Below are positions 1 through 56,391 of a stretch of 64,000 nucleotides of DNA, one piece after another. Positions within the stretch are counted from its first letter, which is position 1. Every line of letters begins with the position of its first letter. Location of the stretch: the NCBI RefSeq assembly GCF_053078305.1, contig NZ_CP166879.1. One strand, given 5' to 3'. Below the pieces are notes generated by a model that saw only the letters and a program-made list of their open reading frames with translations, ran no database searches and was not told where the DNA came from. Both the position numbers and the translations under genes were made by a program.

Positions 1-150
1 ACCCGTGGGGCCAATCAGTTTTACAGCGTCATGGAACGGCTGAAGATGCTCGATTCCCTGCAGGCAACACAGCTTCAGTCGGCCATTGTTAAAGCCATTT
101 ATGTCTATCATCTCCCCGTAGTTGTCCGCATCGTTCGCCAACTCCACTGA
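1..150 (+). CDS. B: phage portal protein (lambda gpB-like), upstream part; 5' partial at window edge and interrupted after codon at nt 96, then 18 foreign codons to a stop
   Basis: Frame 1 reads ...FYSVMERLKMLDSLQATQLQSAIVKA, continuous with MYAATIESELD at 11936; matches remembered lambda portal. Confidence 0.75.
   Translation, partial: TRGANQFYSVMERLKMLDSLQATQLQSAIVKAIYVYHLPVVVRIVRQLH
91..98. other. left junction core repeat AAAGCCAT (putative attL core; extended 12/13 match to nt 103)
   Basis: Identical 8-mer at 11930-11937 exactly where the portal reading frame is broken and resumed. Confidence 0.6.
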
Positions 151-227
151 AACCCTTGCTGCGGCTGGAATGTCGTTTTCCATACTTTTGATGACCGTTC
201 ATCACACTTCCAGGTTTTCGCGGTTTT

Positions 228-280
228 GTGTATTGCAATGTGTATTGCAAATTGGCGATCGGGATGGGTGTGTATTGCAA
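228..280 (+). repeat. three direct copies of GTGTATTGCAA upstream of int (putative arm-type recombinase binding sites)
   Basis: Copies at 228-238, 240-250, 270-280; two more copies at 11835-11857 near the right end. Confidence 0.55.
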
Positions 281-298
281 ATCTCTTGAGGGCTGTTA

Positions 299-1540
299 AT
301 GGCTATTGAAAACAAACTCAGTGACAAACTGTTAAAGAGTCTTGTCGGAAAACGGCAGGACAAACAAAAAACAATAGCGGATGGGCGCGGGTTGTCTGTG
401 CGTGTAAGCATGGTTGGGGGGATCAGCTTTGTTTTTTACTATCGTCTTGGTGGCAGGGAATCCCCTCCGGTATGGCTTACACTTGGGCGCTATCCTGATA
501 TGTCTCTTGCAACAGCCAGGCGCATGCGTGATCAGTGCCGTGAGTGGCTGGCTGAAAATCTGGACCCCCGCAGGCAAATAAAACTTGCCGCCGAAAAAAC
601 CATGCAACCAGTGACCGTAAGGGATGCGCTGTTTTACTGGTACGACAATCACGCCACAACAGCCAGAAAAGAGCATGAATATTTAATAAAACGATTTGAA
701 AAGCATATCTTCCCCTATATCGGTGATATGGCTATAGAACAGTGCAAATTACACACATGGCTTGCCGTCTTTGACAGGATCAAAAAAAATGCGCCTGTTA
801 TGTCTGGTGCAATTTTTCTTGATATCAAACAGGCGTTGCGTTTTTGTCGCGTCAGGCAATACATCGCGTGCGATCCCTTTGGCGATATTAACGTAAGTTA
901 TGTCGGGCGCTCATCCGGTATAAGGGATCGCGTTCTTAATATCAATGAAACAGCGGATGTATGGTCTTATGCTTACGGTAATAATTTGCTGACACTGTCA
1001 TCAATACATAACAGAAGAATAATGGTTATCTGCCTGGTGTTTGGTTGCCGTCAGCAGGAGGCGAGGTTATCCACATGGGACGAATGGGATTTAAAAAACT
1101 GGGTATGGACAGTCCCAAAAGAGCACAGCAAAAACAAGGAGGCCATAGTAAGGCCTGTTCCTGACGGCATAAAACAATGGCTCGTTAATCTTTACGCAGA
1201 AACAAAAAATCGCGGTTATGTTGTCGGTTGTGCTTTGCAAAGGGCGACAATAACAGGGGCTGCAAACAGAATATGCAGGCGTCTTGGTCATGATATTAAT
1301 GGCTTGTGGTGCATACATGATTTCAGGCGCACATTTTCCACTGCGCTTAATGATATGGGGGCGGATCCTTATATTGTCGAACTTCTTTTAGGTCATAAAG
1401 TGAAAGGGGTTGCCGGTGTTTACAATAAAAGCAGGCATATAAAGAAAAAACTTGAGGTGCTTAATATGTGGGTTAATTACCTTAATACGATAGCAGGATT
1501 TAACAACAACGTTATCGAGCTTAATAAAGAGGTGGTGTGA
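299..1540 (+). CDS. int: tyrosine-type site-specific integrase (P4-like family)
   Basis: 413 aa; N-terminal arm-binding-like region, C-terminal HDFRRT...LLGH...GVAGVY catalytic motifs; position at element end. Confidence 0.85.
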   Translation: MAIENKLSDKLLKSLVGKRQDKQKTIADGRGLSVRVSMVGGISFVFYYRLGGRESPPVWLTLGRYPDMSLATARRMRDQCREWLAENLDPRRQIKLAAEKTMQPVTVRDALFYWYDNHATTARKEHEYLIKRFEKHIFPYIGDMAIEQCKLHTWLAVFDRIKKNAPVMSGAIFLDIKQALRFCRVRQYIACDPFGDINVSYVGRSSGIRDRVLNINETADVWSYAYGNNLLTLSSIHNRRIMVICLVFGCRQQEARLSTWDEWDLKNWVWTVPKEHSKNKEAIVRPVPDGIKQWLVNLYAETKNRGYVVGCALQRATITGAANRICRRLGHDINGLWCIHDFRRTFSTALNDMGADPYIVELLLGHKVKGVAGVYNKSRHIKKKLEVLNMWVNYLNTIAGFNNNVIELNKEVV

Positions 1541-1541
1541 T

Positions 1542-1799
1542 ATGGCAATTTATTCTCTTGTTGATGAAAACGATTTGCGCACAATGAAGGACATTGATCG
1601 GTTCATTCGTGAAAAAGAGTGCATAGCACTTACCACGCTGGCAAACTCAACACGCTGGAAAATGGAGCAGGCAGGTAAATTCCCGCGACGTATCAAGATC
1701 GGTGAACGTGCGGCAGGGTATCGACTTTCAGAGGTTCAGGCATGGATCCGTGGTGAGTGGCATCCTGGATGGAAACCTGGAAAAACAAAACAGCAATAA
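1542..1799 (+). CDS. alpA: AlpA-family phage transcriptional regulator / excisionase-like HTH protein
   Basis: 85 aa, overlaps int stop, pattern typical of AlpA (CP4-57 regulatory protein) family. Confidence 0.7.
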   Translation: MAIYSLVDENDLRTMKDIDRFIREKECIALTTLANSTRWKMEQAGKFPRRIKIGERAAGYRLSEVQAWIRGEWHPGWKPGKTKQQ

Positions 1800-1853
1800 C
1801 CAGTAAATAACGCCCCTCATCAAGAGGGGTTTTTGTCTATAGGGTAAAACGCG

Positions 1854-2432
1854 ATGAATAAAAATATTGCCGTGACGGGCAAGGGGTACGCTCGTCCAGT
1901 GAAAAAATTCTGTGATATTCGTGATCTTGTCGTTCTGCGCTTTGATGGTGTGAGCGTTCGCGTGGTGTATGTGAACGGCGATCCGTGGTTTGTTGCCGTT
2001 GACGTGTGCGCTGCGCTGGAAATTGTTGATCACAAGGTTGCGTTACGCCGTCTCGATGATGATGAAAAGGGGGAGTGTTTAATACCCACCCCAGGTGGAA
2101 ATCAAACAATGCGAACGGTATGCGAGTCAGGGTTCTACAAACTAATCGCCAGAAGTCGGAAAGCTGTTACTCCTGGCACGTTCGCCCGTCGTTTCAGTAA
2201 CTGGGTATTCAGAAATGTGATACCAGGTATCAGAAAAACGGGGGCTTATGGTATCCCGTGGGGGGCATTACAGGATTTTTCCCGCCGTAAAGAGCAATAT
2301 CAAATAAGTGCCAGCGAGAAGGGGAGGGAGCTACAGGCATGTAAGCGCAAAAAACGTGAACTGGAGGAAGAAGAAAAAAGGCTGATACGTGAATATCAGC
2401 CTGAGTTTTACTTTGGTGAGCGTATTCAGTAA
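1854..2432 (+). CDS. Bro-N domain protein (phage antirepressor-like)
   Basis: 192 aa; N-terminal FDGVSVRVVYVNGDPWFVAVDVCAALEI resembles Bro-N/antirepressor domain. Confidence 0.55.
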   Translation: MNKNIAVTGKGYARPVKKFCDIRDLVVLRFDGVSVRVVYVNGDPWFVAVDVCAALEIVDHKVALRRLDDDEKGECLIPTPGGNQTMRTVCESGFYKLIARSRKAVTPGTFARRFSNWVFRNVIPGIRKTGAYGIPWGALQDFSRRKEQYQISASEKGRELQACKRKKRELEEEEKRLIREYQPEFYFGERIQ

Positions 2433-2770
2433 CCACACGCGGTGCTGATTATACGGTACATCGTGTTAACCGAGAAGCTACCCACCAGCAAGGCAAAATC
2501 TTCTGCTAAAAAATGACATATGGCCAGTCGTCCGGAAAGCATGAAATTTTACAAAAATGGAAAATGAAGATTTTTATTGTGCTGGTGGGTAAAAACAAAA
2601 AGCGCCCCGTTGCCGGAGCGCCCTTGTGAACAATTAACCTGCTGCGAAAAAATTGGATCAGTGCAGGGAAATTATATCAACTGTGTGAAGAAGCGCCACA
2701 ATTGCCAGTTTAGCTTTGCGGCGAACGCGTCAATAAAGAATATTCTTTCTTTAAATTCTGTTTGTGTATT

Positions 2771-2800
2771 TTTTCGTAGTTTTTCGTAGTTTTTCGTAAG
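2771..2800. repeat. tandem repeat TTTTTCGTAG x3
   Basis: Three perfect 10-bp units in the intergenic gap between convergent genes. Confidence 0.6.
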
Positions 2801-2895
2801 GAGAAAGAGCGGCGCGTATGCACCGCTAAGGAGTTTATTTTCATGACTTATGCAGCTTTCAATCTTAGCACCGCCGTAGCTGGTGGACAAGGCTA

Positions 2896-3123
2896 TCAGC
2901 CAGGCGGTCGGTTTTTAGTGGCTTTTAACCGCCGTGGGTATTTCTCGACAAAATCTTCAAGGGCAAATTTTTCTGGTGGCACTAAGCGCGGCGCTGGTGG
3001 TGGTATTTTTGTTCTGGTTAGTTCTTCCTCAAGTCTGGCGCAGGCTTCTAACTGCCTTTGCCGGATGATTTCATCATCTTGCGTTTGCGTGTCTTGTATT
3101 GGTGATAGTGTGTTGTTGGTCAT
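2896..3123 (-). CDS. hypothetical protein
   Basis: 75-aa ORF co-directional with RHH gene; preferred over overlapping low-complexity + strand ORF. Confidence 0.35.
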   Translation of the reverse strand: MTNNTLSPIQDTQTQDDEIIRQRQLEACARLEEELTRTKIPPPAPRLVPPEKFALEDFVEKYPRRLKATKNRPPG

Positions 3124-3180
3124 GATACTGCCCTGTAAAGCAATGCGCCGGAGTACCTCACGCCACGGCGCTGATAGTGA

Positions 3181-3486
3181 TTATTCTGATTCTTGGGTCT
3201 TGCGACGCTGGAGTTCTTCGCGTGCAACGGTGACAAGTTGCCCGATTTCTTCCGCTGCTTTGATGCCGATTTGTTCGACCTTAGCCAGAGCATCCAGTGA
3301 AGACACAAGGGGATTTTCTCCGCTGCCTTCTGCCTGGCGGCGGGCGATTTCACCGCGCATGGCGGTTACTATGAATCCGGCGTTGCTTTCACCGTCCAGT
3401 TTTACGGATTCCATGCCTTCAATAACATCATGCGGGATCCGAGCTGTCAGTGATTGTGATTTTGCGTTTTTTGAACCTGTAGCCAT
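3181..3486 (-). CDS. ribbon-helix-helix (CopG/Arc-like) DNA-binding protein, putative element repressor
   Basis: SLTARIPHDVIEGMESV beta-strand/helix pattern; ATG at 3486 with GAGAGGA RBS; divergent from rightward operon. Confidence 0.5.
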   Translation of the reverse strand: MATGSKNAKSQSLTARIPHDVIEGMESVKLDGESNAGFIVTAMRGEIARRQAEGSGENPLVSSLDALAKVEQIGIKAAEEIGQLVTVAREELQRRKTQESE

Positions 3487-3700
3487 CTGTAATCCTCTCA
3501 ATGAAAGTGTAAGACAATATACACATAAAAAGTCTTACATAAAAGCATTGACATGTAAGCCACCTATAAATAAAGTTACTTACACCTTGTTAATGCAAGG
3601 TGCAGAAACGACGAAACCCGGCAGTGCGCTAACACTAACCGGGCTTCTAACCACCAACGATAGAAAGCGTATCGAGGTAGCTATGAGAAATCATACCACA
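3487..3700. promoter_or_regulatory. divergent promoter/operator region with repeated TGTAAGACA / GTCTTACAT / ACATGTAAG motifs
   Basis: AT-rich intergenic region between leftward RHH gene and rightward operon, repeated half-sites. Confidence 0.45.
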
Positions 3701-4045
3701 CACCCGCAAGGGCGGGACTCGCACAACCTGAATAAATACATCTGGCGTTTTCTGGCCCGAAAAAACCAGTTGATCGCCAGTGTCGAAAATAGCTATGATT
3801 CCCGCGCACCTCATAAAACGGGTGCCGGGATTGGCGTCCTGGGCAAAACTGAAGCGCATAACACGCGCCCCGCGTGTTTTTTTGTGCCGCATAGTCACAC
3901 CTTATCAATGGTGGGCTGTACGGGGGCGGAGCAATCCGCGCCGGTTTCTTCAGTGTCCGGTTACGCCAACCCTGTACAGTCCGCCACCAGCGAAATTGGC
4001 GTTTCCGGTGGCGGTTATCTTAACCACACTGAGGAGGCTGCCAAC

Positions 4046-4237
4046 ATGGCTACTATCCCTACCCTTGTACATTCTCAAACCGCCTTTCTCTGGCGCTTTA
4101 TCATCTTTGGCGCGTCAGACCATCAAATCATCCACGTCACCGCCTGGACGGAACGCGAAGCGCGTAGCCGTTGCCCGTCCGGTTGTGTTGCTGTATTCGC
4201 CGCCCGTATTCGTCAGGAGGTGTGCCATGTGCAATAA
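4046..4237 (+). CDS. Icd-like small protein (P4 cell-division-inhibitor family), tentative
   Basis: 63 aa, GAGGAGG RBS at 4031-4037; resembles remembered Icd-like proteins of P4-type elements. Confidence 0.4.
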   Translation: MATIPTLVHSQTAFLWRFIIFGASDHQIIHVTAWTEREARSRCPSGCVAVFAARIRQEVCHVQ

Positions 4238-4484
4238 AACCACACCGGACGCAGCCGCCGCGCTCACTACACTGATGCACGCGCTGATTGATATTTCTGT
4301 TATTGCTGACAGGGCGCATAAGCACGCCACCAGTGAAACAGAATATGCCGGGGCTTTCGTTCCTCATTCGCTGGCGGTTATGCAACTTAGTGCTGATATG
4401 GCGCTGAATGAGGCCAAAGCTATCCTGATTTCTGATTGTGAAAATGGGGGGGGGTTATGCGTGATGATCGTTTTAATGCCCTGA
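4227..4484 (+). CDS. hypothetical protein
   Basis: ATG overlapping previous stop, CAGGAGG RBS; operon context. Confidence 0.45.
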   Translation: MCNKTTPDAAAALTTLMHALIDISVIADRAHKHATSETEYAGAFVPHSLAVMQLSADMALNEAKAILISDCENGGGLCVMIVLMP

Positions 4485-4678
4485 AACAGGAGTTTGATGG
4501 TGCGCCTGATGATGCAGGTGATGCGCTTTCGTCAATATCCGAACTGATAAGAGTGGCCTTTTTCTTACTTGGCACGAAAGAATATAAATCAACTGGAATA
4601 GACGTACTGAATATTACTGCTGATTATGCGGAATATATGGCAGAAGTGGATTTAAGAAAGATAACGGACAGGGGGTAA
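4457..4678 (+). CDS. hypothetical protein
   Basis: 73 aa, G-rich RBS upstream, overlaps previous gene end. Confidence 0.45.
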   Translation: MRDDRFNALKQEFDGAPDDAGDALSSISELIRVAFFLLGTKEYKSTGIDVLNITADYAEYMAEVDLRKITDRG

Positions 4679-4679
4679 T

Positions 4680-4913
4680 ATGCGTGATATTTACCACGAA
4701 ACAATAGACCGCGCATTTAGTGCCCTTGCTTACGCTGAAGGTATGTACGAAATATTGCAAATGTGTCTGGAAACATTTGGCGATAATGAGCGTGATGTAA
4801 AGAAGGCGCGGATTATTAAATCACTGATAACTCTCCTTGAACCTGTAATAACAGAGTTGCAGGAAATAGACTTATTGCACGACAGATATAACGAACAGCA
4901 CACCGGAGAATAA
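4680..4913 (+). CDS. hypothetical protein
   Basis: 77 aa, AGGGGG RBS, tightly packed operon. Confidence 0.45.
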   Translation: MRDIYHETIDRAFSALAYAEGMYEILQMCLETFGDNERDVKKARIIKSLITLLEPVITELQEIDLLHDRYNEQHTGE

Positions 4914-4918
4914 AAATA

Positions 4919-5218
4919 ATGAAACTTAAATATCCTGGCTTAACTGCCAGTGGCAACACTCACCCTAAATTTACGCGCGGTGATATTTACCGCGACCAGT
5001 ACGGCGGCACGGTAATGATTAAGGGCGTGGCGGGACGGTGCGTAACTTACCGCCGTGAAGGCTACGAATATGATTGCGTGATGCCTGTTTATCAGTTCCG
5101 GCGTGATTTTTCTCTGGTACAGACCGCGCCGCATAACGTGCCCACCAGCAACGCCAGGGCACGGGCAAACATCCAGAAGCTGAAAACCATGATTAACGGA
5201 TTCAGGGGTAAAAAATGA
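4919..5218 (+). CDS. hypothetical protein
   Basis: 99 aa, GGAG RBS, stop overlaps next start. Confidence 0.45.
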   Translation: MKLKYPGLTASGNTHPKFTRGDIYRDQYGGTVMIKGVAGRCVTYRREGYEYDCVMPVYQFRRDFSLVQTAPHNVPTSNARARANIQKLKTMINGFRGKK

Positions 5219-6624
5219 AACTGGCACCGAACGTAAAACGATTACCGAAAGATAAATACACCGAAGCGGTTATTTTTGCGGGTATTGATGCTCACTCATT
5301 CGCAGAGCATTACATCATTGCACAGGCCAAAAAAGCAGGCGATCCAGTCCCTCCCGTTTATCTGGGGCGTTATCAGTTAAGCGAACTGGATAACCTCCAG
5401 ATTGTTGATGATGGGCGATACAGGGCGACGGTGATACGCGCCGGAAATATTGAAGAGCCGCAGCTGTTAACCATCGCCACGAAACTGGCGAGCGCCGGAG
5501 TCCAGGAGGCGCGGCTACTTTCTGAAAATTTCGAATTGCTGGAGGAATGGAGCGACCAGCTTCCACGGCTTAGGGAGGCATGGGAACGCGGGGAAAGCCT
5601 GGTCATGAAAAAAATTCCCCAGCGAAAAACCACGCTACCGATGAGCGTTGGATCTACCGGATACGACACACAGCTTGATTACGTGGTAAAGGGGATTATT
5701 CCGGCATCGTCGCTTTGCAGCATATACGGGGCGAGCGGTTCCTATAAATCATTCCTTGCCGGATCGTGGGCGTGTCACGTTTCCACGGGCCGCCAGTGGG
5801 GAGGCCGCAGGGTGGCGCATGGCGCTGTTCTCTATGTGGTTGGTGAAGGCGGTATCGGCGTTCCGCGTCGTGTAAAAGCCTGGGAGGTTGTGCACGGTGA
5901 GCAGGTGAAAAATCTGTATCTGGTAAACCGTCCCATCTTTCCGGCTGTCCCGCTTGATGTTGATGAACTGGTTATTGCTGCCAGTCAGGTGGAGAGGGAA
6001 ACGGGTAAACCTGTTCGCATGATTATTCTGGACACGCTGGCGCGTTGCTTTGGCGGCAATGATGAAAATGACTCCCGCGACATGGGGGCATTTATCCGTG
6101 GTTGTGACGAGCTTAAACGGCGCACAGGGGCTACGGTGCTGGTGGTTCACCATTCCGGCAAGGATGAAACAAAGGGGGCGCGTGGTTCCAGTGCATTTCG
6201 TGCATCACTGGACGCTGAATACCGGATACGCAGGGAGGACGCAGGAAGCGAAGCGCTGGTTATCTCATGCACCAAAATGAAGGACGCGGAGGAACTCAAA
6301 GAGGCTGCCTATGATTTGCGGGTGGTGGAGCTTTTTACCGACGCTGACGGGGAGTTAATTACGTCGCTGGTGGTGGTGGATAAGCCGCGCCCTCCCGTTG
6401 AACTGGAGCGCATCGAGGAGGCAGGCAACAAGACGGAAAACCATACCGCGCTATGGGGGTGCATCCGTTCACGCACACAGAACGGCGACAAGTGCACGAT
6501 CCCGCTGTTACGTGACGATATGAAAAAGCTGGGGTATGACACAAAACACCTTAAACGATGGTTAGCCAAACTGGAAAAAGACGACGTGATCTACATTGAC
6601 GGTGATGATGTAGGACCACTGTAA
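5215..6624 (+). CDS. replication initiation protein, RecA-like ATPase (AAA_25/RepA-type) with C-terminal DNA-binding domain
   Basis: 469 aa; Walker A-like GASGSYKS, Walker B MIILD, LVVHHSGKD motif; iterons immediately downstream. Confidence 0.7.
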   Translation: MKLAPNVKRLPKDKYTEAVIFAGIDAHSFAEHYIIAQAKKAGDPVPPVYLGRYQLSELDNLQIVDDGRYRATVIRAGNIEEPQLLTIATKLASAGVQEARLLSENFELLEEWSDQLPRLREAWERGESLVMKKIPQRKTTLPMSVGSTGYDTQLDYVVKGIIPASSLCSIYGASGSYKSFLAGSWACHVSTGRQWGGRRVAHGAVLYVVGEGGIGVPRRVKAWEVVHGEQVKNLYLVNRPIFPAVPLDVDELVIAASQVERETGKPVRMIILDTLARCFGGNDENDSRDMGAFIRGCDELKRRTGATVLVVHHSGKDETKGARGSSAFRASLDAEYRIRREDAGSEALVISCTKMKDAEELKEAAYDLRVVELFTDADGELITSLVVVDKPRPPVELERIEEAGNKTENHTALWGCIRSRTQNGDKCTIPLLRDDMKKLGYDTKHLKRWLAKLEKDDVIYIDGDDVGPL

Positions 6625-6830
6625 AAAGTGGGCATTAAAAGTGGGAAAGGTGGGCGATTTAACGTAATTTTAACAAAATCACCCACTTTCCCACGTGTAT
6701 ATATCCCAAAAAGTGGGCACTAAAAAAATACCTATGAAACAAGATGATATAAATCCCAAACTTCCCACGTTGGACGAAGTGGGAAAACGTAAAAAGTGGG
6801 CGAAAAAAGTGGGTAGAGGTGGGCGAATGA
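6625..6830. repeat. iteron array, putative replication origin of the satellite
   Basis: About ten copies of AAGTGGG(C/A) / GGTGGGCGA in both orientations directly downstream of the rep gene. Confidence 0.7.
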
Positions 6831-7078
6831 CTCAAAAACACAGAGACAGAACAGAGCCAAAATATAAAGCGTTAGACATGACAGAGCACGCTTTAAAGGT
6901 GGCAATCAGGGTAATAGACCGCCACACGCGGGAAGGATACGCGAAGGAACATCCCGACCTGATAAGCGCATTCATGACCACAGCGGCGGCAAACTTTGCC
7001 ACGCTGACAGAACGGGAGATAGCCGAAGCGGAACAGGTAACAACCATCAACGTTAAAACCGGAGAGGTGGAATCATGA
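6827..7078 (+). CDS. hypothetical protein
   Basis: 83 aa from ATG at 6827 (upstream part of track ORF lies in the iterons). Confidence 0.45.
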   Translation: MTQKHRDRTEPKYKALDMTEHALKVAIRVIDRHTREGYAKEHPDLISAFMTTAAANFATLTEREIAEAEQVTTINVKTGEVES

Positions 7079-7485
7079 CAGCACAGATAGCCGCTTACGG
7101 GCGGCTGGTGGACGACCCGCAGGTAAAACAAACCAGCAAGGGCACACCGATGACGCTGGCGCGTATGGCGGTATCTCTGCCATGCAGCCAGGCACAGGAC
7201 GGGCAGGCTACGTTATGGCTATCAGTGATGGCATTTGGTAAGCAGGCCGACTTCCTGGCTAAACATCAAAAAGGCGATGTTGCCAGCGTATCCGGCACGA
7301 TGCAGGTAAGCCAGTGGACCAGACAGAACGGGGAAACGCGGCAGGGTTATCAGGTTATTGCAGACAGTGTAATCAGTGCCCGTGCTGCCCGTCCTGGCGG
7401 GAGCAGACGTACAACCACAGGCACACAGGGTAATCAGCCACCAGCGGGAGGCGATGACCCTTACGGTGACGGTATTCCGTTCTGA
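7075..7485 (+). CDS. ssb: single-stranded DNA-binding protein
   Basis: OB-fold pattern and acidic C-terminal tail DDPYGDGIPF typical of SSB. Confidence 0.75.
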   Translation: MTAQIAAYGRLVDDPQVKQTSKGTPMTLARMAVSLPCSQAQDGQATLWLSVMAFGKQADFLAKHQKGDVASVSGTMQVSQWTRQNGETRQGYQVIADSVISARAARPGGSRRTTTGTQGNQPPAGGDDPYGDGIPF

Positions 7486-7495
7486 GGGGGTGACG

Positions 7496-7768
7496 ATGGT
7501 ACATGACCGCATAGCGGAGGAACTCGAGGCAAAAGGCTTTTACCGGAGGGCGGCGGCGCGATGGGGTGAAGTTATGCAGCTGGTGGAGACAGACAAGGAA
7601 CGGCATCAGGTTACGATGCGACGGCTGGAATGTTCCAGGAAGGCACAGAGGCCACCGGAGCCGCCGGATAACTTCGGAGACCTGAAAAAAGCAGTAGATC
7701 GCACTTATGCCGAAATGGGTATGGATGGTGTAAGCGATGAAATATGGCGTAATTACCCAGACAGCTAA
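7496..7768 (+). CDS. PerC-family transcriptional regulator
   Basis: 90 aa; IAEELEAKGFYRRAAARW motif resembles PerC family. Confidence 0.5.
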   Translation: MVHDRIAEELEAKGFYRRAAARWGEVMQLVETDKERHQVTMRRLECSRKAQRPPEPPDNFGDLKKAVDRTYAEMGMDGVSDEIWRNYPDS

Positions 7769-7774
7769 TCAACA

Positions 7775-7796
7775 GCCGGAGAAATCCGGCTTTTTT
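7775..7796 (+). terminator. rho-independent terminator (GCCGGAGAAATCCGGC + T-run)
   Basis: Perfect hairpin then TTTTTT; identical hairpin recurs at 10049-10071. Confidence 0.65.
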
Positions 7797-8007
7797 GTAC
7801 CCAAAAAAAGCCCGATAAGTACAGGAGGCATCTTATCGGGCTTTTGCATATGAGGTTTTTTTGGTGCACTGACACACATGATCGGGGTAATCATTTCATA
7901 ATTTGCAACACAACTCAACATCATTGCACAAAATGCAATCCTGATTATAATCAGAGCTGGATGAACATCCAGTTCTGATTTTTTAAGTCAAAGAGGAATT
8001 TCTTACT

Positions 8008-8214
8008 ATGGCTGAAGAGAAAAAAGGCGGTGTTTCGGTGTACATAAGCCCCGAAATCGTGGAGGTGCTCAAGCAGCGCCACAAAAAAAACTATGAGGCT
8101 GGCGTAGCGGCTGGACTGGATCCGCTGATGACGCCGGAGCCGTCGATAGGTTCACTTGTGCGCTCTTATTTACTTGCGGCGCTTGGGATGCATAAAAATT
8201 ATGGTGGTGAATAA
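8008..8214 (+). CDS. hypothetical protein
   Basis: 68 aa, AAGAGG RBS, first gene of capsid operon. Confidence 0.45.
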   Translation: MAEEKKGGVSVYISPEIVEVLKQRHKKNYEAGVAAGLDPLMTPEPSIGSLVRSYLLAALGMHKNYGGE

Positions 8215-9269
8215 TGACAGTAAAAGCAATGGCACTTACAACTAACCAGCTTTTCGCGTACCTGAATCGCGGGGATATTGCAGAATTTAAATTCAGTCCG
8301 CTGTTTACCACGCTGTTTTTCCCGAACGTGGCGACCTTCAACACCCAGAACATCATGCTGGACACCCTGGACATTGAAGAGGTTACGATGTCAGCGTTCT
8401 GTTCGCCTATGGTGGGTAGTCAGGTCCAGCGCGATAAAGGGTACGAAACCAGCACGATTAAACCAGGCTACATGAAACCCAAACACGAAATCGATCCAAC
8501 AAAAACCATCATGCGCATGGCTGGAGAAGATCCGGCACAGCTTAACGACCCTACCTACCGCCGTATGCGCCTGATTACTGGCAACATGCGCCGCCAGATA
8601 AACGCCATTAAAGCGCGCGTGGAATGGCTGGCGGTGAATGCGATAACGACCGGAAAAAACATCATTGAGGGCGAAGGCATAGAACGCTATGAAATCGACT
8701 GGAAAATACCGGAAAACTGCATCATAGAGCAGGCCAAGGGTAAAAAATGGTCCGAGCATGATAAAGATATTTACGATCCAATCTATGACATCGAACTATA
8801 CGCAGATCAGGCAGGTTGCCCCGCCAACGTCATGATTATGGGCGCTGAGGTATGGCGCACGTTACGCAGCTTTAAAAAATTCCGCGAACTGTACGATCTT
8901 TCCCGTGGTTCAGAATCCGCCGCAGAACTGGCCTGTAAAAACCTGGGTGAAGTAGTGAGCTTTAAAGGCTATCTGGGCGATATTGCCCTTATCGTCTATT
9001 CCGGCAAATACACTGACAGCGACGGTACCGAAAAATATTTCCTTGAGCCTGATTTGCTGGTCCTGGGTAACACCAACAATAAAGGGCTGGTGGCCTATGG
9101 TGCGATTATGGATCAGGAAGCGGTAAGAACGGGCGCAACGCAAAACATGTTCTACCCGAAAAACTGGATTGAAGACGGCGATCCGGCGATTGAGTACGTT
9201 CAGACGCACAGCGCACCGCAGCCGGTACCGGCAGATATTCGCAAATTTGTTACCGTCAAAATTGCTTAA
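8214..9269 (+). CDS. major capsid protein, lambda gpE-like paralog encoded by the satellite
   Basis: 351 aa; clear similarity to helper E at 14646-15674 (PGYVKPKHE, EDPAQLNDP, VVSFKGY, VLGNT motifs). Confidence 0.85.
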   Translation: MTVKAMALTTNQLFAYLNRGDIAEFKFSPLFTTLFFPNVATFNTQNIMLDTLDIEEVTMSAFCSPMVGSQVQRDKGYETSTIKPGYMKPKHEIDPTKTIMRMAGEDPAQLNDPTYRRMRLITGNMRRQINAIKARVEWLAVNAITTGKNIIEGEGIERYEIDWKIPENCIIEQAKGKKWSEHDKDIYDPIYDIELYADQAGCPANVMIMGAEVWRTLRSFKKFRELYDLSRGSESAAELACKNLGEVVSFKGYLGDIALIVYSGKYTDSDGTEKYFLEPDLLVLGNTNNKGLVAYGAIMDQEAVRTGATQNMFYPKNWIEDGDPAIEYVQTHSAPQPVPADIRKFVTVKIA

Positions 9270-9280
9270 CGGGGGATTCT

Positions 9281-9616: not shown

Positions 9617-9628
9617 GCAGGGGAAACG

Positions 9629-10042: not shown

Positions 10043-10048
10043 CATAAG

Positions 10049-10071
10049 GCCGGAGAAATCCGGCTTTTTTT
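10049..10071 (+). terminator. rho-independent terminator after capsid operon
   Basis: GCCGGAGAAATCCGGC hairpin followed by TTTTTTT. Confidence 0.65.
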
Positions 10072-10130: not shown

Positions 10131-10248
10131 TTTATGAGCTTTTTTCGGGTGCTGGTGGTGGTTTTGTTGTTCGCTCTATCTCTATGAATAAAAAGGGAAA
10201 GATAAAACCAATACACCAACCTGAAACATTACTTAAGTGGGGATATTG

Positions 10249-48582: not shown

Positions 48583-49130
48583 CCCTGACCCCGCATCAGC
48601 GCGCCCTGTTGCAGTTGCTGCCTGACGGGCTGGCATGGGATAAGCGGCCGTCATCCGTTCTTGCAGCTTTGTGCCTGGGCCTCAGTCATTCCACGGAGCG
48701 TGTTTCCTGGACCGGTAACCAGATGCTGGCAGAACGTTTTCCTGATTCATCCCGTCTGCTGCTGGAAGACTGGGAGCGTTATCTGGGGTTGCCGGAATGT
48801 GATATGACCGGCGCAACCATTCAGGAACGTCAGCGTTATGCCGGGAATAAATACCGGATGAAACCCTCTCTTAACCGTGAATTTTATATCCGGTTTGCGG
48901 CTGAGTTTGGTTATGAAATAGATATCCAGCCATCACCGGAATCACAATGGATCAGTATTGTGACAGTGAAGACGGCGGTGGGATACCGTCACATGAATGT
49001 ACTGGACGATATTCTTACACCACTGCGAATTTATGATGCAAGTGCGCTGGAGTGCATTTTAAACCGTTATAAGCCAGCCTGGCAGACGTTTTTATATCTG
49101 TACGAAAACAGTCATGAGGAGACGGAGTAA
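48573..49130 (+). CDS. tail protein (Mu gp48-like)
   Basis: 185 aa. Confidence 0.55.
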   Translation: MAVTLTPHQRALLQLLPDGLAWDKRPSSVLAALCLGLSHSTERVSWTGNQMLAERFPDSSRLLLEDWERYLGLPECDMTGATIQERQRYAGNKYRMKPSLNREFYIRFAAEFGYEIDIQPSPESQWISIVTVKTAVGYRHMNVLDDILTPLRIYDASALECILNRYKPAWQTFLYLYENSHEETE

Positions 49131-50017
49131 TGTATTTTGTCGACAACAATTCAGGTGTGACCGATATGCCACCACTGGCCCCCTCTCAGGGTACGCAGGT
49201 TAAATGGTTTACTGAAGGTGACGGACGCAAAGGGATCAGCCATATCGGTCAGGACTGGCTGAACATCGTGCAGGCAGAGCTGCTTGCCATTCTGACAGAA
49301 GGAAAGGTTCAGCCGGATAAGGCAAAACTGAACCAGCTGGTGACAGCCATTAAGGCAATCATTGCAGCAAACGCATACAGCCGGAAAAACAACCTTAAGG
49401 AGATTGCGGATGCAGGTGCAGAAGCACAGGCTGCTGCCCGCCGTCATCTGGGGCTGGGAGGATTATCAGGAAAAGACAGTCTGGCTGCTGCTGATGTGGG
49501 AGCACTGGAGAAATCCCGGAATTTTGACGATGTACCGGATAAACCGACGGCCCGCCTGAATCTTGATGTTTACAGTAAGGGAGAAGGCGATGAGCGTTAT
49601 CTGCGCAGGGACCAGAATGGCGCGGATATCCCGGACAAAGGAACCTTTATCGATAACCTCGGTTTACGGGAAACGGTAAATAAGGCTGCTGATGCCCTGC
49701 CATCGGGTGGAACCGCCGTGGCAGCGAATAAACTCGCCACCCCAGTAAATATTAATGGCGTTCCTTTCGACGGAACGCAGGATATCAATATTACATCGGG
49801 GATGACGCAGTCTGTGGCTGACTCACGTTATGTTCAAAGCATTCGAAGAGGTTCAAGGTCAACGATTGGAATGCAATATAATATTTTTGAAGTTCCTGAC
49901 GGATGCGTACTTACAGGGCTTGATGTCGCTGGTGATGGTAATGCAACGGTAACCGCATATTATCGCCCTGTTCAGTTTCTGATAAATGGTTCGTGGAAAA
50001 CAGCTTCCAGCGCATAA
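49130..50017 (+). CDS. tail fibre protein S (constant part plus variable part Sv in current orientation)
   Basis: 295 aa; C-terminal third lies inside the invertible segment. Confidence 0.75.
   Translation: MYFVDNNSGVTDMPPLAPSQGTQVKWFTEGDGRKGISHIGQDWLNIVQAELLAILTEGKVQPDKAKLNQLVTAIKAIIAANAYSRKNNLKEIADAGAEAQAAARRHLGLGGLSGKDSLAAADVGALEKSRNFDDVPDKPTARLNLDVYSKGEGDERYLRRDQNGADIPDKGTFIDNLGLRETVNKAADALPSGGTAVAANKLATPVNINGVPFDGTQDINITSGMTQSVADSRYVQSIRRGSRSTIGMQYNIFEVPDGCVLTGLDVAGDGNATVTAYYRPVQFLINGSWKTASSA
49655..49788. repeat. left inverted repeat of invertible tail-fibre segment (134 bp)
   Basis: Reverse-complement identical to 50906-51039 by manual comparison. Confidence 0.8.
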
Positions 50018-50096
50018 AAGTGCAGTAGTTCAAAAAACAGATTATCTGAATAAATATATGATGATTTTGTCTTTTCAACAAAAACAAGGTGAAATA

Positions 50097-50618
50097 ATGG
50101 AGCTTATTAACGTAAAACGATATTACCCGGAACACAAACCCTATGGTGAGGATGTTCAGTATTTCCAGAGTGAGGACGGAAGGGATTTTTATGAATCTCT
50201 CCCGCTTTTCACAAAGAAATACAAACTCTGTATTTCGCCTGTAACGGGTATTATCTGCTCTGTTGCTGAAGATGTCTCTGCTTTATATCCGGCAGGTTTT
50301 ACTGTTGTTGAAGTGGACGAACTGCCGGAAGGTGTGGATATTGACGGTAACTGGCAGTTTTCTGATGGCCTGATATCAAAGGTGCCGGTAAACTGGAAGA
50401 CGGTTGCTGAAAAGCGCCGCTCATCGCTGCTCCAGGAAGCCAACGAAACTGTGGATGACTGGAAAACGGAATTAAAACTGGACATGATTAGCGATGAAAA
50501 TAAATTACAGCTGACGCGCTGGATGGCGTATATCCGACAGCTTAAAGAAATGCACTTTAATGATATTGCCAGTGAGGGGCATTACCAGGCGATTCCCTGG
50601 CCGGAAAAACCGGAATAA
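50097..50618 (+). CDS. tail fibre assembly protein (U-like)
   Basis: 174 aa from ATG at 50097; inside invertible segment. Confidence 0.7.
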   Translation: MELINVKRYYPEHKPYGEDVQYFQSEDGRDFYESLPLFTKKYKLCISPVTGIICSVAEDVSALYPAGFTVVEVDELPEGVDIDGNWQFSDGLISKVPVNWKTVAEKRRSSLLQEANETVDDWKTELKLDMISDENKLQLTRWMAYIRQLKEMHFNDIASEGHYQAIPWPEKPE

Positions 50619-50652
50619 TTCAGAGGGTGCATTCAGCACCCTTTTCTGTGGT

Positions 50653-50976
50653 TTACACTGAACTTACCGTTCTCCAGGCATTATTAATATAAATCTGAAC
50701 CGGGCGATAATAGACCCCACCGATATTGTCCGCAGACCGGGAGCCGGTTTCCTGCACGTTAATACCGGAAAGCATACAACCGGAAGGTGCGCTGTAATTC
50801 CATGACATTTCATTGCCTCCGGGTGAATGATAGCTCTGTGCTCCAAGCTGAACATTCTGTACATACCGGCCATCTGCGGTTGACTGCGTCATTCCTGACG
50901 TGATGTTGATATCCTGCGTTCCGTCGAAAGGAACGCCATTAATATTTACTGGGGTGGCGAGTTTATTCGCTGCCAC
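50653..50976 (-). CDS. alternative tail-fibre C-terminal cassette (Sv'), promoterless in current orientation
   Basis: Minus-strand ORF homologous to S C-terminus (ANKLATPVNINGVPFDGTQDINITSGMTQS...). Confidence 0.7.
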   Translation of the reverse strand: MAANKLATPVNINGVPFDGTQDINITSGMTQSTADGRYVQNVQLGAQSYHSPGGNEMSWNYSAPSGCMLSGINVQETGSRSADNIGGVYYRPVQIYINNAWRTVSSV

Positions 50977-51039
50977 GGCGGTTCCACCCGATGGCAGGGC
51001 ATCAGCAGCCTTATTTACCGTTTCCCGTAAACCGAGGTT
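50906..51039. repeat. right inverted repeat of invertible segment (134 bp)
   Basis: Partner of 49655-49788. Confidence 0.8.
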
Positions 51040-51101
51040 TCAGGGATGTCGTATATCTGCTTTAAAAGGCATTTTCACCTCTTTTTAAGGAAGGTAAATA
51101 C

Positions 51102-51752: not shown

Positions 51753-53810
51753 ATGAATATTATGACGTCCAAATGGGTTCAACTATCATCAATGCCCGGA
51801 AACTTTACCGTTAAAGTTTCCGGTGGTACAGCGGCATTTCTTGAGGCTCCTTTTCCTCCGGCTGAAACGAAAGGAGGAATGACATTTGCTGACTGTCTCA
51901 TCAGTTTTAATACACAGGATTGCCTGTGGGTAAGGCCAGTATCCGGTGATCCGAACGTGGAAATTACCGGAGCGGGTATTGGTGCTGTCATTCCGTTAAG
52001 TGCTGATGTTGCCGGTACTACTGAACCGTCAGACTGGGATAATGCTGAAACACATACCCGTCCGGCAGGAAATGAAACGGCTTCCAGCTCCCCTTCCTGG
52101 TATTACGTGATTGTTATAGCCGGTCAGTCCAATGCTTCATCTTATGGTGAAGGGTTGCCCCTGCCGGATTCTTATGATCGTCCTGATCCACGTATTATGC
52201 AGCTGGCACGCAGGAATACACAAACCCCCGGAGGTATTCCCTGCAAATACAATGAAATCATTCCAGCAGATCACTGCCTTCATGATGTTCAGAATATGAG
52301 TCTGCTGAACCATCCAAAAGCAGACCTGAAAAAAGGGCAGTATGGTTGTGTGGGTCAGGGACTTCATATTGCGAAAAAAGTATTACCGGTGATTCCTGCT
52401 GATGCCGGGATTTTACTGGTTCCCTGTGCCCGTGGCGGCTCTGCTTTTACAACCGGCGCAGTTGGCTCATTCGATCCGGCAAGTGGTGCAGCCGAGGCGT
52501 CACTACGCTGGGGAGTGGATACCCCACTGTATCAGGATCTTGTCAGTCGAACGAAAGCGGCACTTGAGGCGAATCCAAAGAATGTGCTGTTATCTGTCGT
52601 ATGGATTCAGGGGGAAGGAGACCTTAAAGCGACCCCGGCCCAGCATGGTGCCCAGTTTACTGCGATGGTGAAAAAATTCCGTGCGGATCTTGGTGCTTTC
52701 TCCGGTCAGTGTATTGGTGGTTCATCAGACAGTGTGCCGTGGTTATGTGGTGACACAACCTATGACTGGAAAGAGAAGAACCCGGCGGCATATGAAACCA
52801 TTTATAGCGGATATAAAAACCGGGCTTCCGAGAACATTCACTTTGTTCCACTGATGCACGATGAGTTCGGTAATAAAACCGCGACCAACCTGCCGGAGCA
52901 CGACCCGGATATCGCTTCTGCCGGGTATTATGGTGCGGAATCACGGGGAGATGGCAACTGGACAACAGCATCCAGGGCAACCCATTTTAGCTCCTGGGCG
53001 CGCCGTTTTCTGGTCTCAGATCGTTTTGCATCAGCAATTCTTAAATATGCAGGTCTGACCTCTGCATTTATTGCCGGTGTGGCCCCTGATGGTGAAGCCC
53101 TGCCTCAGCCCGCGCCGGGTGGAAAACCGGAAGCTCCGACAGGTAGTCAGCCAGGAAGCAGTGAGTCCCCCCAGCCGACATCCCCGTCACTCCGTACGCT
53201 GCTTTCACTTAAAGCATCAGCAGGGGAAGCCCCGGCTCAGGGATGGAAAATTACAGATGGTACAATCCAGCTGACGGACGAAGGTAAAGCGCTGACCGTA
53301 TCCAAACAAAGCGGAAAAACCTGGTCACTTACCCATGCGACCAGTGCTGCCGGAGAGCTGTTGCAGCATGGTGGTCAGTTGACCTGTAAATTCCGTCTGT
53401 CAGGTGAAGTAAAAGAAGGCCAGTTTGCTCTGGGTATTTACCTCCACACCGATACGGTCCCGGAAGGTGTAACCATGAGTGGTACAGGCACACCGTTCCT
53501 GATGGCGTATTATCTCCAGACAACAGGCGGCCAGTTAAATCTGATGCACCATAAAACAGGGGGGAATACGAAACTGGGATCATTTGGAGCCTACAATAAC
53601 CAGTGGCATACACTTGTCCTGAAGTTTACGGCGGGAAGTGCCCAGGTAACGCCTGTGCTGGATGGCACTCCGGGCCAGGCATTCCAGATGGTGAAAGATG
53701 CACTTTCCCCTGCCAAAGATACGCTGACACTGACAGATGTCACCAAAGGGGCAACTTATGGCGTGTCTTTTGAGAGCGTTGTCCTTGAGGTTAATACCCC
53801 TGCGGCATAA
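51753..53810 (+). CDS. NanS-p-like sialate O-acetylesterase (SASA-type esterase with lectin-like C-terminal domain), tentative
   Basis: 685 aa; GQSNASSYGEG esterase motif; cargo position between gin and com/mom. Confidence 0.5.
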   Translation: MNIMTSKWVQLSSMPGNFTVKVSGGTAAFLEAPFPPAETKGGMTFADCLISFNTQDCLWVRPVSGDPNVEITGAGIGAVIPLSADVAGTTEPSDWDNAETHTRPAGNETASSSPSWYYVIVIAGQSNASSYGEGLPLPDSYDRPDPRIMQLARRNTQTPGGIPCKYNEIIPADHCLHDVQNMSLLNHPKADLKKGQYGCVGQGLHIAKKVLPVIPADAGILLVPCARGGSAFTTGAVGSFDPASGAAEASLRWGVDTPLYQDLVSRTKAALEANPKNVLLSVVWIQGEGDLKATPAQHGAQFTAMVKKFRADLGAFSGQCIGGSSDSVPWLCGDTTYDWKEKNPAAYETIYSGYKNRASENIHFVPLMHDEFGNKTATNLPEHDPDIASAGYYGAESRGDGNWTTASRATHFSSWARRFLVSDRFASAILKYAGLTSAFIAGVAPDGEALPQPAPGGKPEAPTGSQPGSSESPQPTSPSLRTLLSLKASAGEAPAQGWKITDGTIQLTDEGKALTVSKQSGKTWSLTHATSAAGELLQHGGQLTCKFRLSGEVKEGQFALGIYLHTDTVPEGVTMSGTGTPFLMAYYLQTTGGQLNLMHHKTGGNTKLGSFGAYNNQWHTLVLKFTAGSAQVTPVLDGTPGQAFQMVKDALSPAKDTLTLTDVTKGATYGVSFESVVLEVNTPAA

Positions 53811-54082
53811 TCGTGACGGCCGGGAATTTATCCGGCTGTAACATCAGTTAATAAGAGTGAGGCTTATATGACATATATAAACGTCTGCCTGCTGTATTTC
53901 TGCACGGTGGTTTGTTGTCTGTTGCTTGTCAGCGGTGGTTATAAAATTATTCGCAATTATTTTCGAAATAAAATTGATGCAGCTGCCGAGGAAAAGATAA
54001 AAAGCGGTGCTGTAATGCCGCAGCCGAAAGACTCCGGTCAGATTTAATTTTTTGTGAACCAGAAAAGGAAAGGAGAATATTC

Positions 54083-54328
54083 ATGCCAGAGATTAAAGGC
54101 ACGGTTACTGAAGAGCTTGTCAAACAGGCACTTTATTCTGAAGAAGTGAACCGCGTGCTGAAGGCGCAGGTTCGCAAGGATTTTGAGGCACAAATCGACG
54201 CATATGTTGATGAAGTGCTGGCCCGAATGGTTGGCCATTCTCCGGCTGAAAACAGCACGGAGAATGAGCCTCAGCCCGTAGAGCAACCAGAGCCGGTTCA
54301 GCCCGGAACTGACAGTGCCATGATGTAA
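54083..54328 (+). CDS. hypothetical protein
   Basis: 81 aa, AAGGAG RBS. Confidence 0.4.
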   Translation: MPEIKGTVTEELVKQALYSEEVNRVLKAQVRKDFEAQIDAYVDEVLARMVGHSPAENSTENEPQPVEQPEPVQPGTDSAMM

Positions 54329-54402
54329 CAATACAAACCGACAGCTTCTCCTGTCGGTTTGATTTTCATGGGCGATGTATATACCAGTCAGAGGAAATAA
54401 TC

Positions 54403-54603
54403 ATGGACAAGAACAAAAAGCAGCCCGATACCAAAGGTCTGGAAATATTAAGCGCAGAAATTATCAATGCGCTACGTTCAGGACTTGATGAAAATACATT
54501 ACAGGATCGAAACTTCACCACTGCAATGTGGATAGCGATGCAGATCCTGTGTACCCCAAGATGCGCTATTTTTGCGGTTCGTGAGGGTCAGTTGACTCGC
54601 TGA
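54403..54603 (+). CDS. hypothetical protein
   Basis: 66-aa ORF; competing antisense ORF 54566-54796. Confidence 0.3.
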   Translation: MDKNKKQPDTKGLEILSAEIINALRSGLDENTLQDRNFTTAMWIAMQILCTPRCAIFAVREGQLTR

Positions 54604-55258
54604 TTGCCCGAATTACATCAGAAAAGCACGCGTTCCATAATTGCATAGCTGATGAATCACCAGCTGTATGAAAAGAGGTAAAGACACAACTGGTGGATGT
54701 CATTGCTGCAATTGTGATATCAGCTGCAATTCGCGCAGCCTGTAACTTTTGGTCGGTGGTCAGTTTATCCATTTTCTCCTGCCTGAACAGATGCATCTCT
54801 GCTTTACAGGAGGCCGGGGAATATCATAGGATACACCACGAGCTCAGAGTGAAGCATTGATGCAGTTTTTTACAGATTGACCCAGAATAGTTCGCGCTAT
54901 CTGAGTCGCCATTTATGTAGTCCCGAAGTAAAGCATTGATGCAAACTTGTCTAAATCGGCCCAGCATAGTTCCAGCTATGCTGGGTTTCCCTTTTATGTA
55001 GTATCCTGTTGATTTGAAACATACTACATATACGCGCGATCCTACCTTCACTGGATAAAAAGTCAATAAAATGATCATTTTATGATCGTTTTCACCACCT
55101 AACTCTTCGTTTTCTTTAAGTAAATAATCACCGCCCTGAATCATTGTTGATGACTTTTCAATCTATTTGTTGTATCAATTAAACAAATCGAATCGATCGT
55201 TTTTGTCGATCGATTGCATGAGAAAGGCATCAACAACAAAGCAGGAGGTTATGCGGCC

Positions 55259-55459
55259 ATGTATCGAAACATACGGTGCCGACACTGCAATAAGCTACTG
55301 GCACGGGCCAGTTTCAGTTATCTGGAAGTAAAATGTCCGCGCTGTAAAACCCTCAATCAAATCACATCTCCGAGCGCCACAGAGCACCCCACATACACAA
55401 GGAAATCCTGTCGTGGGGAACAGAAAGCAAGTCACATCCCGTATCATCAGCACGCCTGA
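55259..55459 (+). CDS. com: Com zinc-finger translational activator of mom
   Basis: CRHCNKLL...CPRCK zinc finger; overlaps start of mom. Confidence 0.75.
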
Positions 55460-56150
55460 ACTTATTCGCTATAACGACAATATCGTTGGTTATGGTTCCC
55501 GTGAGTTGCGGGTTGAGACAATAAGTTGCTGGCTGGCCAGACTGGTTATCGTCAATAAACATTACAGCCACCGTTTCGTAAATAACTCCTACCTTCATCT
55601 GGGCATATTTTCAGAACGGGAACTTGTTGGCGTAATGCAATGGGGTTACGCCCTTAACCCAAACAGTGGTGCACGCGTCGTAACGGGTACGCAGAACCGA
55701 GAATATATGGAGCTGAACCGGCTATGGATGCATGACTGTATGCCGAGAAACTCCGAATCAAGGGCAATCAGTTACGCGCTCAAGCTAATCAGGCAGCTTT
55801 ATCCGCAGGTACAGTGGGTTCAGTCGTTTGCAGATGAGCGTTGTGGCTGTCTTGGTGTCGTGTATCAGGCAAGCAATTTTGATTATGTAGGCAGCCATGA
55901 AACAATATTCTATGAACTTGATGGCGAGTGGTATCACGAGATTTGCAGGAATGCCATTAAACGAGGCGGACAACGAGGTGAACATCTGAGGGCTAATATC
56001 GACAGAGCCAGTGTGCATAAGTTCCGACAGTTTCGTTACATCCGGTTTCTGAACAAGAGGGCCAGAAAACGCCTCAACACAAAGCTATTCAAAGTCCAGC
56101 CTTACCCAAAACCACAAACAGTTAAAACTGGTTTGAAAGAGAGTGAATGA
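55413..56150 (+). CDS. mom: DNA modification protein Mom
   Basis: 245 aa at extreme right end after com, as in Mu. Confidence 0.7.
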
Positions 56151-56277
56151 GCGCTTAAAAACTCATTCTAAAACTCAAAAGAAAAGCGCCGATTTAGTAT
56201 CAAATAAGTTGCGTATCGGCGTTTTTCAGCGGTATCAAATGAAATGCAAATCGGTATCAAAAAAATCGCCGCGCTAT

Positions 56278-56391
56278 ATGCCGCTGACCACAGCATTTAA
56301 ACAGAATATTGAACGTATCCGGCGTGAACGCCTGCCAGAAGAACTGGCATATGCGCTGAAACAACAACTGAGGATTGCGATAAAACGATGA
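56278..56391 (+). pseudogene. Z: tail protein Z, downstream part resuming after Mu-like insertion
   Basis: [36 protein letters not shown] matches remembered lambda Z C-terminus. Confidence 0.8.

Follow-up and report, generated by a model that had tools for sequence, protein, structure and literature searches.

Two insertions split one late operon

The window, as we call the whole 64,000-nt stretch of contig NZ_CP166879.1 (RefSeq assembly GCF_053078305.1) analysed here, carries on its plus strand the late (morphogenesis) operon of a lambda-like prophage, identified by tblastn with lambda proteins, into which two further mobile elements are inserted: a phage satellite in the portal gene B and a Mu-like prophage in the tail completion gene Z. 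From left to right, plus-strand matches were obtained to residues 245-279 of lambda B (positions 1-105), residues 273-522 of B (11924-12670), the head genes C/Nu3, D, E, FI and FII (12705-16452, within an intact block at 12699-16455), residues 1-159 of Z (16471-16947), residues 151-192 of Z (56263-56388), and the tail genes U, V, G, T, H, M, L, K and I with the start of J (56388-63999, an intact block extending to 64000). Among the lambda late-gene homologues visible in the window, B and Z are the only broken ones; C, Nu3, D, E, FI, FII, U, V, G, T, H, M, L, K, I and the start of J contain no in-frame stops. The locus, whose anatomy, junctions and gene intactness could be read directly, is a three-layer nest of mobile elements built by two ordinary and already described processes.

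The portal gene is interrupted by an HE-PICI satellite

An 11.8-kb satellite (104-11929, plus strand) interrupts the portal gene at codon ~273. The 3' end of the portal 5' fragment occupies positions 1-103, including the attL core AAAGCCATTTATG at 91-103, and leaves the portal sequence reading ...KAIYVYHLPV; the upstream remainder of this gpB-like fragment runs off the window start and was found on a sister contig of the same strain (L013, see below). The 3' fragment (11930-12709, plus strand; phrog_537 portal, E = 9e-108) starts with the attR core AAAGCCATGTATG at 11930-11942. Removal of the satellite in silico, by joining the upstream sequence of L013 to window 1-103 and 11943-12709, gave a single 530-aa portal open reading frame (ORF) with the predicted junction sequence GTTAAAGCCATGTATGCAGCG and a complete Pfam Phage_portal_2 domain (residues 29-397 aligned with model positions 2-354, E = 4e-100), in which residue ~273 falls near model position 235-241. 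Excision would therefore rebuild the portal gene. These sequences support a site-specific integration that is reversible in principle, because the integrase and AlpA-type excisionase genes are intact and the att cores match.

On its att sites and a doubled motif, the satellite is classed as a helper-embedded phage-inducible chromosomal island (HE-PICI) of group B:Phage_portal_2:241. HE-PICIs were described by Tommasini, Mageeney & Williams (2023), who count 491 satellites at 14 lambda-type late-gene sites, the portal gene included (PMC10111431). The window flanks, ...ttatgtctatcatctc.ccgtagttg.ccgcatcgttcgccaactccactgaaaccc... and ...agcattcgtaatgtactgtttttaaattttattttttcctgtcttttcata..., match the published attL/attR alignments of the group almost base for base. 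The element lies inside a late gene, is co-oriented with it (int, alpA and the replication genes are all on the plus strand) and disrupts its target without replacement sequence. The doubled motif tgTGTATTGCantgTGTATTGCa, a presumed integrase arm site, occurs in two co-oriented plus-strand copies, tgTGTATTGCaatgTGTATTGCa at 227-250 on the attL side and TGTATTGC at 11834-11857 on the attR side, with a third, single copy from ~271. Measured from the centre of the 13-nt core, these two copies lie at 130 and 80 nt, respectively, as compared with 132 +/- 2 downstream and 81 +/- 2 upstream of the attP centre in the published description, the exact reference points of which may differ from ours (PMC10111431).

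The four zones of an HE-PICI follow one another in order, all of the following features being on the plus strand. The Int/AlpA zone consists of a 413-aa tyrosine integrase (299-1540; phrog_1 integrase, E = 1.6e-58), equal in length to its homologue in Escherichia coli EC28, and an AlpA-type excisionase/transcriptional regulator (1542-1799; phrog_2790, E = 1.9e-15). The Bro zone holds a Bro-N/anti-repressor protein (1854-2432; phrog_2593, E = 1.5e-78) and, at 3806-3991, the immunity-type isrK (3806-3882; Rfam RF01394, 66 bits) and C4 antisense (3904-3991; RF01695, 77.6 bits) RNAs, each scoring above its gathering score. The replication zone encodes a RepA-like helicase/primase (5215-6624; phrog_2850, E = 1e-222, and phrog_906) and a single-stranded DNA-binding protein, SSB (7075-7485; phrog_44, E = 1e-38). 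The captured late genes encode a gpE-like major capsid protein (8214-9269; phrog_29, E = 1.4e-107; 43% identity to lambda E by tblastn), a gpD-like head decoration protein (9281-9616; phrog_49, E = 4e-27), a Nu3/scaffold-like protein (9629-10042; phrog_1999, E = 6.7e-62; phrog_53 positions 494-567) that aligns to the C-terminal part of head-maturation-protease profiles, and a Nu1-like terminase small subunit, TerS (10237-10791; phrog_57, E = 8.8e-52; 36% identity by tblastn). The stretch 2843-4484 shows two long plus-strand 'ORFs' of 464 and 234 aa that look non-coding and of low complexity; what it does contain is the isrK and C4 RNAs and, on the minus strand, a real gene of the YlcI/YnfO family (3181-3501).

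According to PHROGs gene content, the satellite carries no portal, protease, large terminase, connector/head-completion or tail genes, and must therefore borrow these from a lambdoid helper. A capsid-forming PICI (cf-PICI) was considered and rejected, as genes for portal, protease, large terminase and connector are missing from the satellite. Its lambda-type cosN, GGGCGGCGACCT (10104-10115, plus strand), is identical by sequence comparison to the cosN of lambda and to that of a second prophage of the same strain. The satellite cos lies directly upstream of its own terS (window 10066-10222, compared with 7160-7315 of the second-prophage segment L012); its left flank is identical to that of the second prophage's cos, and its right, cosB-side flank diverges. 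This arrangement agrees with a small terminase that is specific to the satellite and directs a large terminase that is shared.

The satellite resembles the other members of its group in portal target position, att flanks, motif spacing, zone order, size (~11 kb) and co-orientation with the late genes, as well as in disrupting its target gene with an attP that brings no replacement sequence. It differs in its 8-bp identity block, AAAGCCAT as against AAGGCGAT in the published E. coli examples; this block follows the allele of the host portal. Its helper, moreover, additionally holds a Mu-like prophage. In E. coli EC28 this portal site is occupied by the same satellite, and the Mu-like phage is lacking; there the replication gene is a primase, whereas here it is a RepA-type helicase, and here terS is carried by the satellite. 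The portal::int (attL) junction is present in at least 62 of 5426 complete E. coli genomes.

Gene Z is interrupted by an Sp18-type transposable prophage

The second insertion separates codons 1-157 of Z (16471-16940; phrog_27 tail completion protein) from codons 158-192 and the stop (56283-56391), both parts being on the plus strand and delimited by comparison with lambda. As found, the Z ORF stops at 16953, inside the Mu end, and would yield 157 native residues followed by VTR. Deletion of 16941-56282 restores a Z of 579 nt (192 aa), 90% identical to lambda gpZ and positioned between FII and U. The insert is flanked by a 4-bp target duplication, TGCC, at 16937-16940 and 56279-56282 (junction comparison; empty site at 973-976 of L055, another segment of the second prophage), and the target without an insert, GATGGCGGTGCCGCTGACC, can be read in lambda, E. 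coli EC28 and the second prophage.

The insert itself (16941-56278, plus strand; 39,338 bp) is a Mu-type transposable prophage like Sp18 of O157:H7, as judged from tblastn against the copy in O157:H7 Balcarce (L002) and from its junctions. Comparison with five insertions at unrelated sites put its termini at 16941 on the left (TGTAACC...) and 56278 on the right (...GCGCTATA). The loci compared were L002, where the target is an alcohol dehydrogenase gene, L003 and L004, where it is a prophage gene (tail-tip J and small terminase, respectively), and L095-L098. The gene order is c (minus strand), ner, A, B, gam, mor, lysis, terminase, portal, head, sheath/tube tail, baseplate, invertible fibre segment, gin, com and mom. 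Full-length matches at 50-100% identity, most above 90%, were obtained by tblastn for 55 of the 59 coding sequences of the Balcarce copy, and these comprise all structural, transposition and regulatory genes, both terminase subunits, the tape measure, the baseplate and the fibres included; the other four are two accessory ORFs that are absent, one that is truncated or degenerate, and a DUF1378 protein matched over 56 of 60 residues. The transposase A (annotated as 'Mu transposase C-terminal domain-containing protein') and the AAA ATPase B are each 99.4% identical to their Balcarce counterparts over the full length. The inserted prophage is apparently complete. Near gin, the invertible (G-like) fibre segment at 49130-51100 has the orientation opposite to that in the Balcarce copy, which is consistent with active Gin inversion.

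Insertions of this kind are not new. The insert is 94-95% identical to the stretches that GenBank records of Stx phages annotate as 'region of the inserted Bacteriophage Mu-like phage' (LC727881 and LC727895), and six of ten Mu-like insertions in clonal complex 119 were reported within mobile elements (PMC10132054). With Sp18 of O157:H7 Sakai and its relatives in Shiga-toxin E. coli (PMC10132054, PMC2669165) it shares DNA identity of 94-99%, gene order and scattered insertion sites; among the E. coli genomes examined, such relatives also sit in a prophage small-terminase gene and in a tail-tip J gene. Unlike theirs, the target prophage here additionally hosts a satellite, and this particular insertion in Z was found in none of the 5426 complete E. 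coli genomes. Contigs of GTDB species representatives, scanned for the left Z::Mu junction, likewise gave no hit.

Prophages of the Mu type do not excise within their life cycle. Published work on Sp18 describes an apparently intact phage that is active spontaneously and packaged efficiently, that mitomycin C does not induce, and that undergoes neither excision nor circularisation (PMC2669165). Since Sp18-type prophages are not excised in their life cycle, Z stays truncated in this copy. The initial annotation of the locus, made from the sequence alone, had the portal gene disrupted by a satellite and Z by a Mu-like phage, with the former break alone potentially reversible. All of this is borne out: the portal is split at codon ~273 with att cores at both junctions, Z is broken after codon 157 by an insert flanked by TGCC, either ORF is restored in silico, and intact int and AlpA genes with matching att cores at the portal face a transposition-type break in Z. 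The accompanying statement that Mu-type insertions are not normally excised precisely agrees with the short target duplication and with the published behaviour of Sp18 (PMC2669165).

Sp18-type phages duplicate 4 bp of target and end in TA

The target duplication was 4 bp in all six Sp18-type insertions in which both junctions could be read (TGCC, TCTG, TGCC, TGCC, GGCG and TGCT), and in the same six the right terminus ends in TA (...TATA), not CA. Canonical Mu duplicates 5 bp of target and has 5'-TG...CA-3' termini. In both respects the insert departs from canonical Mu (Muvirus): it works like Mu, and is not Mu itself. It shares with Mu the order c-ner-A-B...mor...lysis...head...contractile tail...gin...com-mom, the invertible fibre segment and near-random transposition, but nucleotide similarity is confined to short stretches at about 72%. 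Some Sp18-type copies begin TATAACC instead of TGTAACC.

Other readings of the junctions were considered. Duplications of 3 bp, or of 5 bp with a mismatch, were rejected, as the base after ...GCGCTAT is A in six of six insertions and the next base is not T in CP053731. A target hotspot at TGCC, suggested by three of the first four insertions, was likewise rejected: Sp18-type phages are inserted at many unrelated sites, and across 21 independent, different left flanks the preference is weak. A literature search found no published description of the Sp18 target duplication or of the TA terminus; if not already documented, the two together would mark a mechanistic difference from Mu.

A second lambdoid prophage in the same strain

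The IMG genome 2617271340, which represents the same strain (see below), contains a second lambdoid prophage on a 50.8-kb contig (IMGVR_UViG_2617271340_000013), and the state of its late genes was likewise established directly. Nu1, A, W and B are intact on segment L012, where the attB of the satellite is unoccupied; C/Nu3, D, E and the start of FI are intact on L032, which is 98.4% identical to the window; and FII, Z, U, V, G, T, H, M, L, K, I and J are intact on L055. Over the late region compared (>8 kb), the two prophages are 96.6-98.6% identical. The Z of L055 has 192 aa, of which 190 are identical to the rebuilt Z of the window. The window sequences left and right of the Mu-like prophage both align to L055, and as the two alignments overlap by exactly TGCC, L055 represents the empty-site allele. 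The portal gene of the second prophage (L012 10741-10860) carries the unoccupied attB variant GTGAAGGCGATGTATG, which is the variant occupied by satellites of this group (L009 and the published set). From this sequence, the strain apparently holds a usable free integration site for the satellite in the portal of the second prophage.

This prophage bears on the claim, made in the initial annotation, that a tail-defective helper would strand the satellite unless another helper supplied tails. In favour of an embedded satellite left with no usable tails in this strain are the truncation of Z after residue 157 of 192, the fact that lambda particles without gpZ, the prototype tail completion protein, look normal and are mostly non-infectious (PMC11784142, PMC11099176), and the observation, in the HE-PICI study, that many helpers look truncated and their satellites potentially 'abandoned' until a new helper arrives (PMC10111431). 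Against it, the second prophage has an intact portal, Z and complete tail module through J at the DNA identity given above, portal and gpZ-bearing tails being thereby plausibly available in trans; the satellite's cosN and left cos flank are identical to those of this prophage; and trans-complementation among lambdoid prophages is documented, head functions of defective lambdoid prophages in O157 Sakai having been complemented by co-resident prophages (PMC2669165). The initial annotation had itself proposed looking for a second lambda-like helper with intact Z, and one is found in the same strain. Stranding is accordingly unlikely, provided that the second prophage is inducible, and the claim is not supported.

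The host prophage is probably dead as a phage

The properties of gpZ-less lambda particles (PMC11784142, PMC11099176) support the proposal that the nested prophage is tail-defective. The possibility that the truncated Z, with its 157 native residues plus VTR, still works appears very improbable to us. The truncated product keeps 82% of the protein, and the PHROG tail-completion profile still matches residues 1-159, but the 35 residues lost are conserved between this Z and lambda Z, suggesting selective constraint. Even a working truncated Z would leave U to J displaced by 39 kb and a genome that should be too long to package.

The oversize genome, overlooked in the initial annotation, would be a larger handicap than the loss of Z. 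Lambda packaging tolerates roughly 10% excess DNA, as stated in the HE-PICI study (PMC10111431), and a prophage with 39.3 kb extra between its cos sites should exceed this limit. As 39.3 kb is far above a ~10% tolerance, the prophage is probably dead as a phage even if Z should be functional. Excision, replication and the production of head and packaging proteins could still occur. The distance from the late promoter to U to J has increased by the same 39.3 kb, and the expression of these genes is likely delayed or reduced by the displacement. The initial annotation had Z as probably permanently inactivated. Z does stay truncated in this copy, but 'permanently' is too strong, since the late regions of the two prophages share 96.6-98.6% identity across more than 8 kb, and recombination between them could restore Z.

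The Mu-like prophage that interrupts Z itself encodes, at 35032-35505, a gpG-type 'virion morphogenesis protein', the Mu counterpart of tail completion; Mu gpG is listed among the tail completion proteins (PMC11099176). Cross-complementation of Z by this protein is not expected.

The junctions recur in an independent assembly

All four junctions were reproduced in IMG/VR contigs of genome 2617271340. L013 covers window 1-1679 (100% identity over 1679 nt) together with the upstream portal sequence, and thus the attL junction; L006 covers window 17412-4643, with attR and the left Z::Mu junction; and L099 covers window 53344-64000, with the right Mu::Z junction. These contigs differ from the window by small indels only and by no substitutions, and they therefore represent the same strain, independently assembled. 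Misassembly had been a concern of the initial annotation, and the structure withstands it: repeats of a kind that can cause chimeric joins do occur in the strain, namely two Mu-like prophages and at least two lambdoid ones (96.6-98.6% identity in the late region compared), but an assembly artefact is next to impossible given that the satellite is flanked by its att cores and the Mu-like phage by its 4-bp duplication, that removal of each insert restores a perfect ORF, and that contigs of the independent same-strain assembly span all four junctions.

The second Mu-like prophage of the strain, on L103 (IMGVR_UViG_2617271340_000022, from position 449), is also Sp18-like and different from the insert in Z: its A/B region is 97% identical to that of the insert, and its repressor region is unrelated. 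The two are probably heteroimmune. Its target is presumably a ferritin-like gene, from inspection of the translated flank by eye.

Discussion

The anatomy suggests the following course. A PICI-type satellite integrated by tyrosine-recombinase site-specific recombination at portal codon ~273, in the orientation of the late operon, and an Sp18-type phage transposed into Z at codon 157/158, in the same orientation, leaving a 4-bp duplication. On induction, the satellite would excise by means of Int and AlpA and rebuild the portal gene, and gpZ with complete tails may be supplied in trans by the second prophage, by analogy with the defective prophages of O157 Sakai. An order of events in which excision is precise has a published precedent: for HE-PICI 11capE, in the capsid gene E, the composite excised precisely and then replicated, and the satellite then excised, as followed by quantitative PCR and sequencing (PMC10111431).

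Each component has close relatives in the literature. The prophage pool of O157 Sakai (Asadulghani et al. 2009, PMC2669165) likewise combines similar lambdoid prophages in one cell, some with inactivated morphogenesis genes whose defects are complemented; there the lesions are mostly insertion sequence (IS) insertions, frameshifts and deletions, whereas here a whole transposable phage and a satellite cause the disruption. The Arsenophonus nasoniae helper Ana29.79.guaB is one helper interrupted in two late genes by two mobile elements, but both of these are reversible site-specific satellites, whereas the second insert here is a transposable phage (PMC10111431). The layered phage-in-phage parasitism proposed for this locus is therefore a real nest, but it is not new in kind, both types of insert being published. 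It is a new instance that combines a published satellite type, published Sp18-like behaviour and the published idea of a complementing prophage pool.

The orientation of the insert allows a further scenario, which we regard as doubtful. The Mu-like prophage lies in the sense orientation, and late-operon transcription entering it would oppose c and have the direction of ner, A and B. DNA-damage induction of the lambdoid prophage might then, by Q-antiterminated transcription, switch on a Mu-like phage that is not itself damage-inducible, and U to J could in turn be reached by late transcription from the Mu-like prophage. A consensus scan of the initial ~1.4 kb at the Mu left end (16941-18400) found no terminator-like site on the late-transcript strand, and at the left junction neither terminator nor promoter scans exceeded shuffled expectation. 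At the right junction terminator-like sites were modestly in excess (5, against 2.0 expected from shuffled sequence), and the consensus scan placed none on the plus strand between mom and U. If true, the result would be a three-level cascade, running from the lambdoid prophage to satellite excision and Mu-like transposition.

We hold with a probability of about 0.8 that the nest is as described, with an HE-PICI in B, an Sp18-type phage in Z, a host prophage dead as a phage and a satellite that is probably not stranded. Several points weigh against this. Infectious particles were not recovered for the related HE-PICI 11capE that was tested (PMC10111431). The inducibility of either lambdoid prophage is presupposed, their immunity, replication and lysis regions lying outside the window, and induction of the first may not be accompanied by that of the second prophage. 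The gpZ of the second prophage differs at two positions from the rebuilt Z, its portal gene has ~96% nucleotide identity to the disrupted one (3' part compared), and it is placed in the same cell by a shared IMG genome identifier, not by one contiguous sequence. Finally, the loss of activity in a Z truncated at residue 157 is judged from sequence, and the effect of the Mu-like prophage on the expression of U to J is one that we infer.

Since the components and the idea of an abandoned or complemented helper are already published, the locus opens no new question. Of the by-products, the 4-bp duplication and TA terminus seen consistently in Sp18-type phages are the most useful. The locus itself is a clean, base-resolved natural case of three mobile elements nested in one place, and it illustrates how a helper prophage may be grounded and its embedded satellite still be able to draw on a sister prophage; its use would lie in this illustration and in providing a test strain for HE-PICI trans-complementation.

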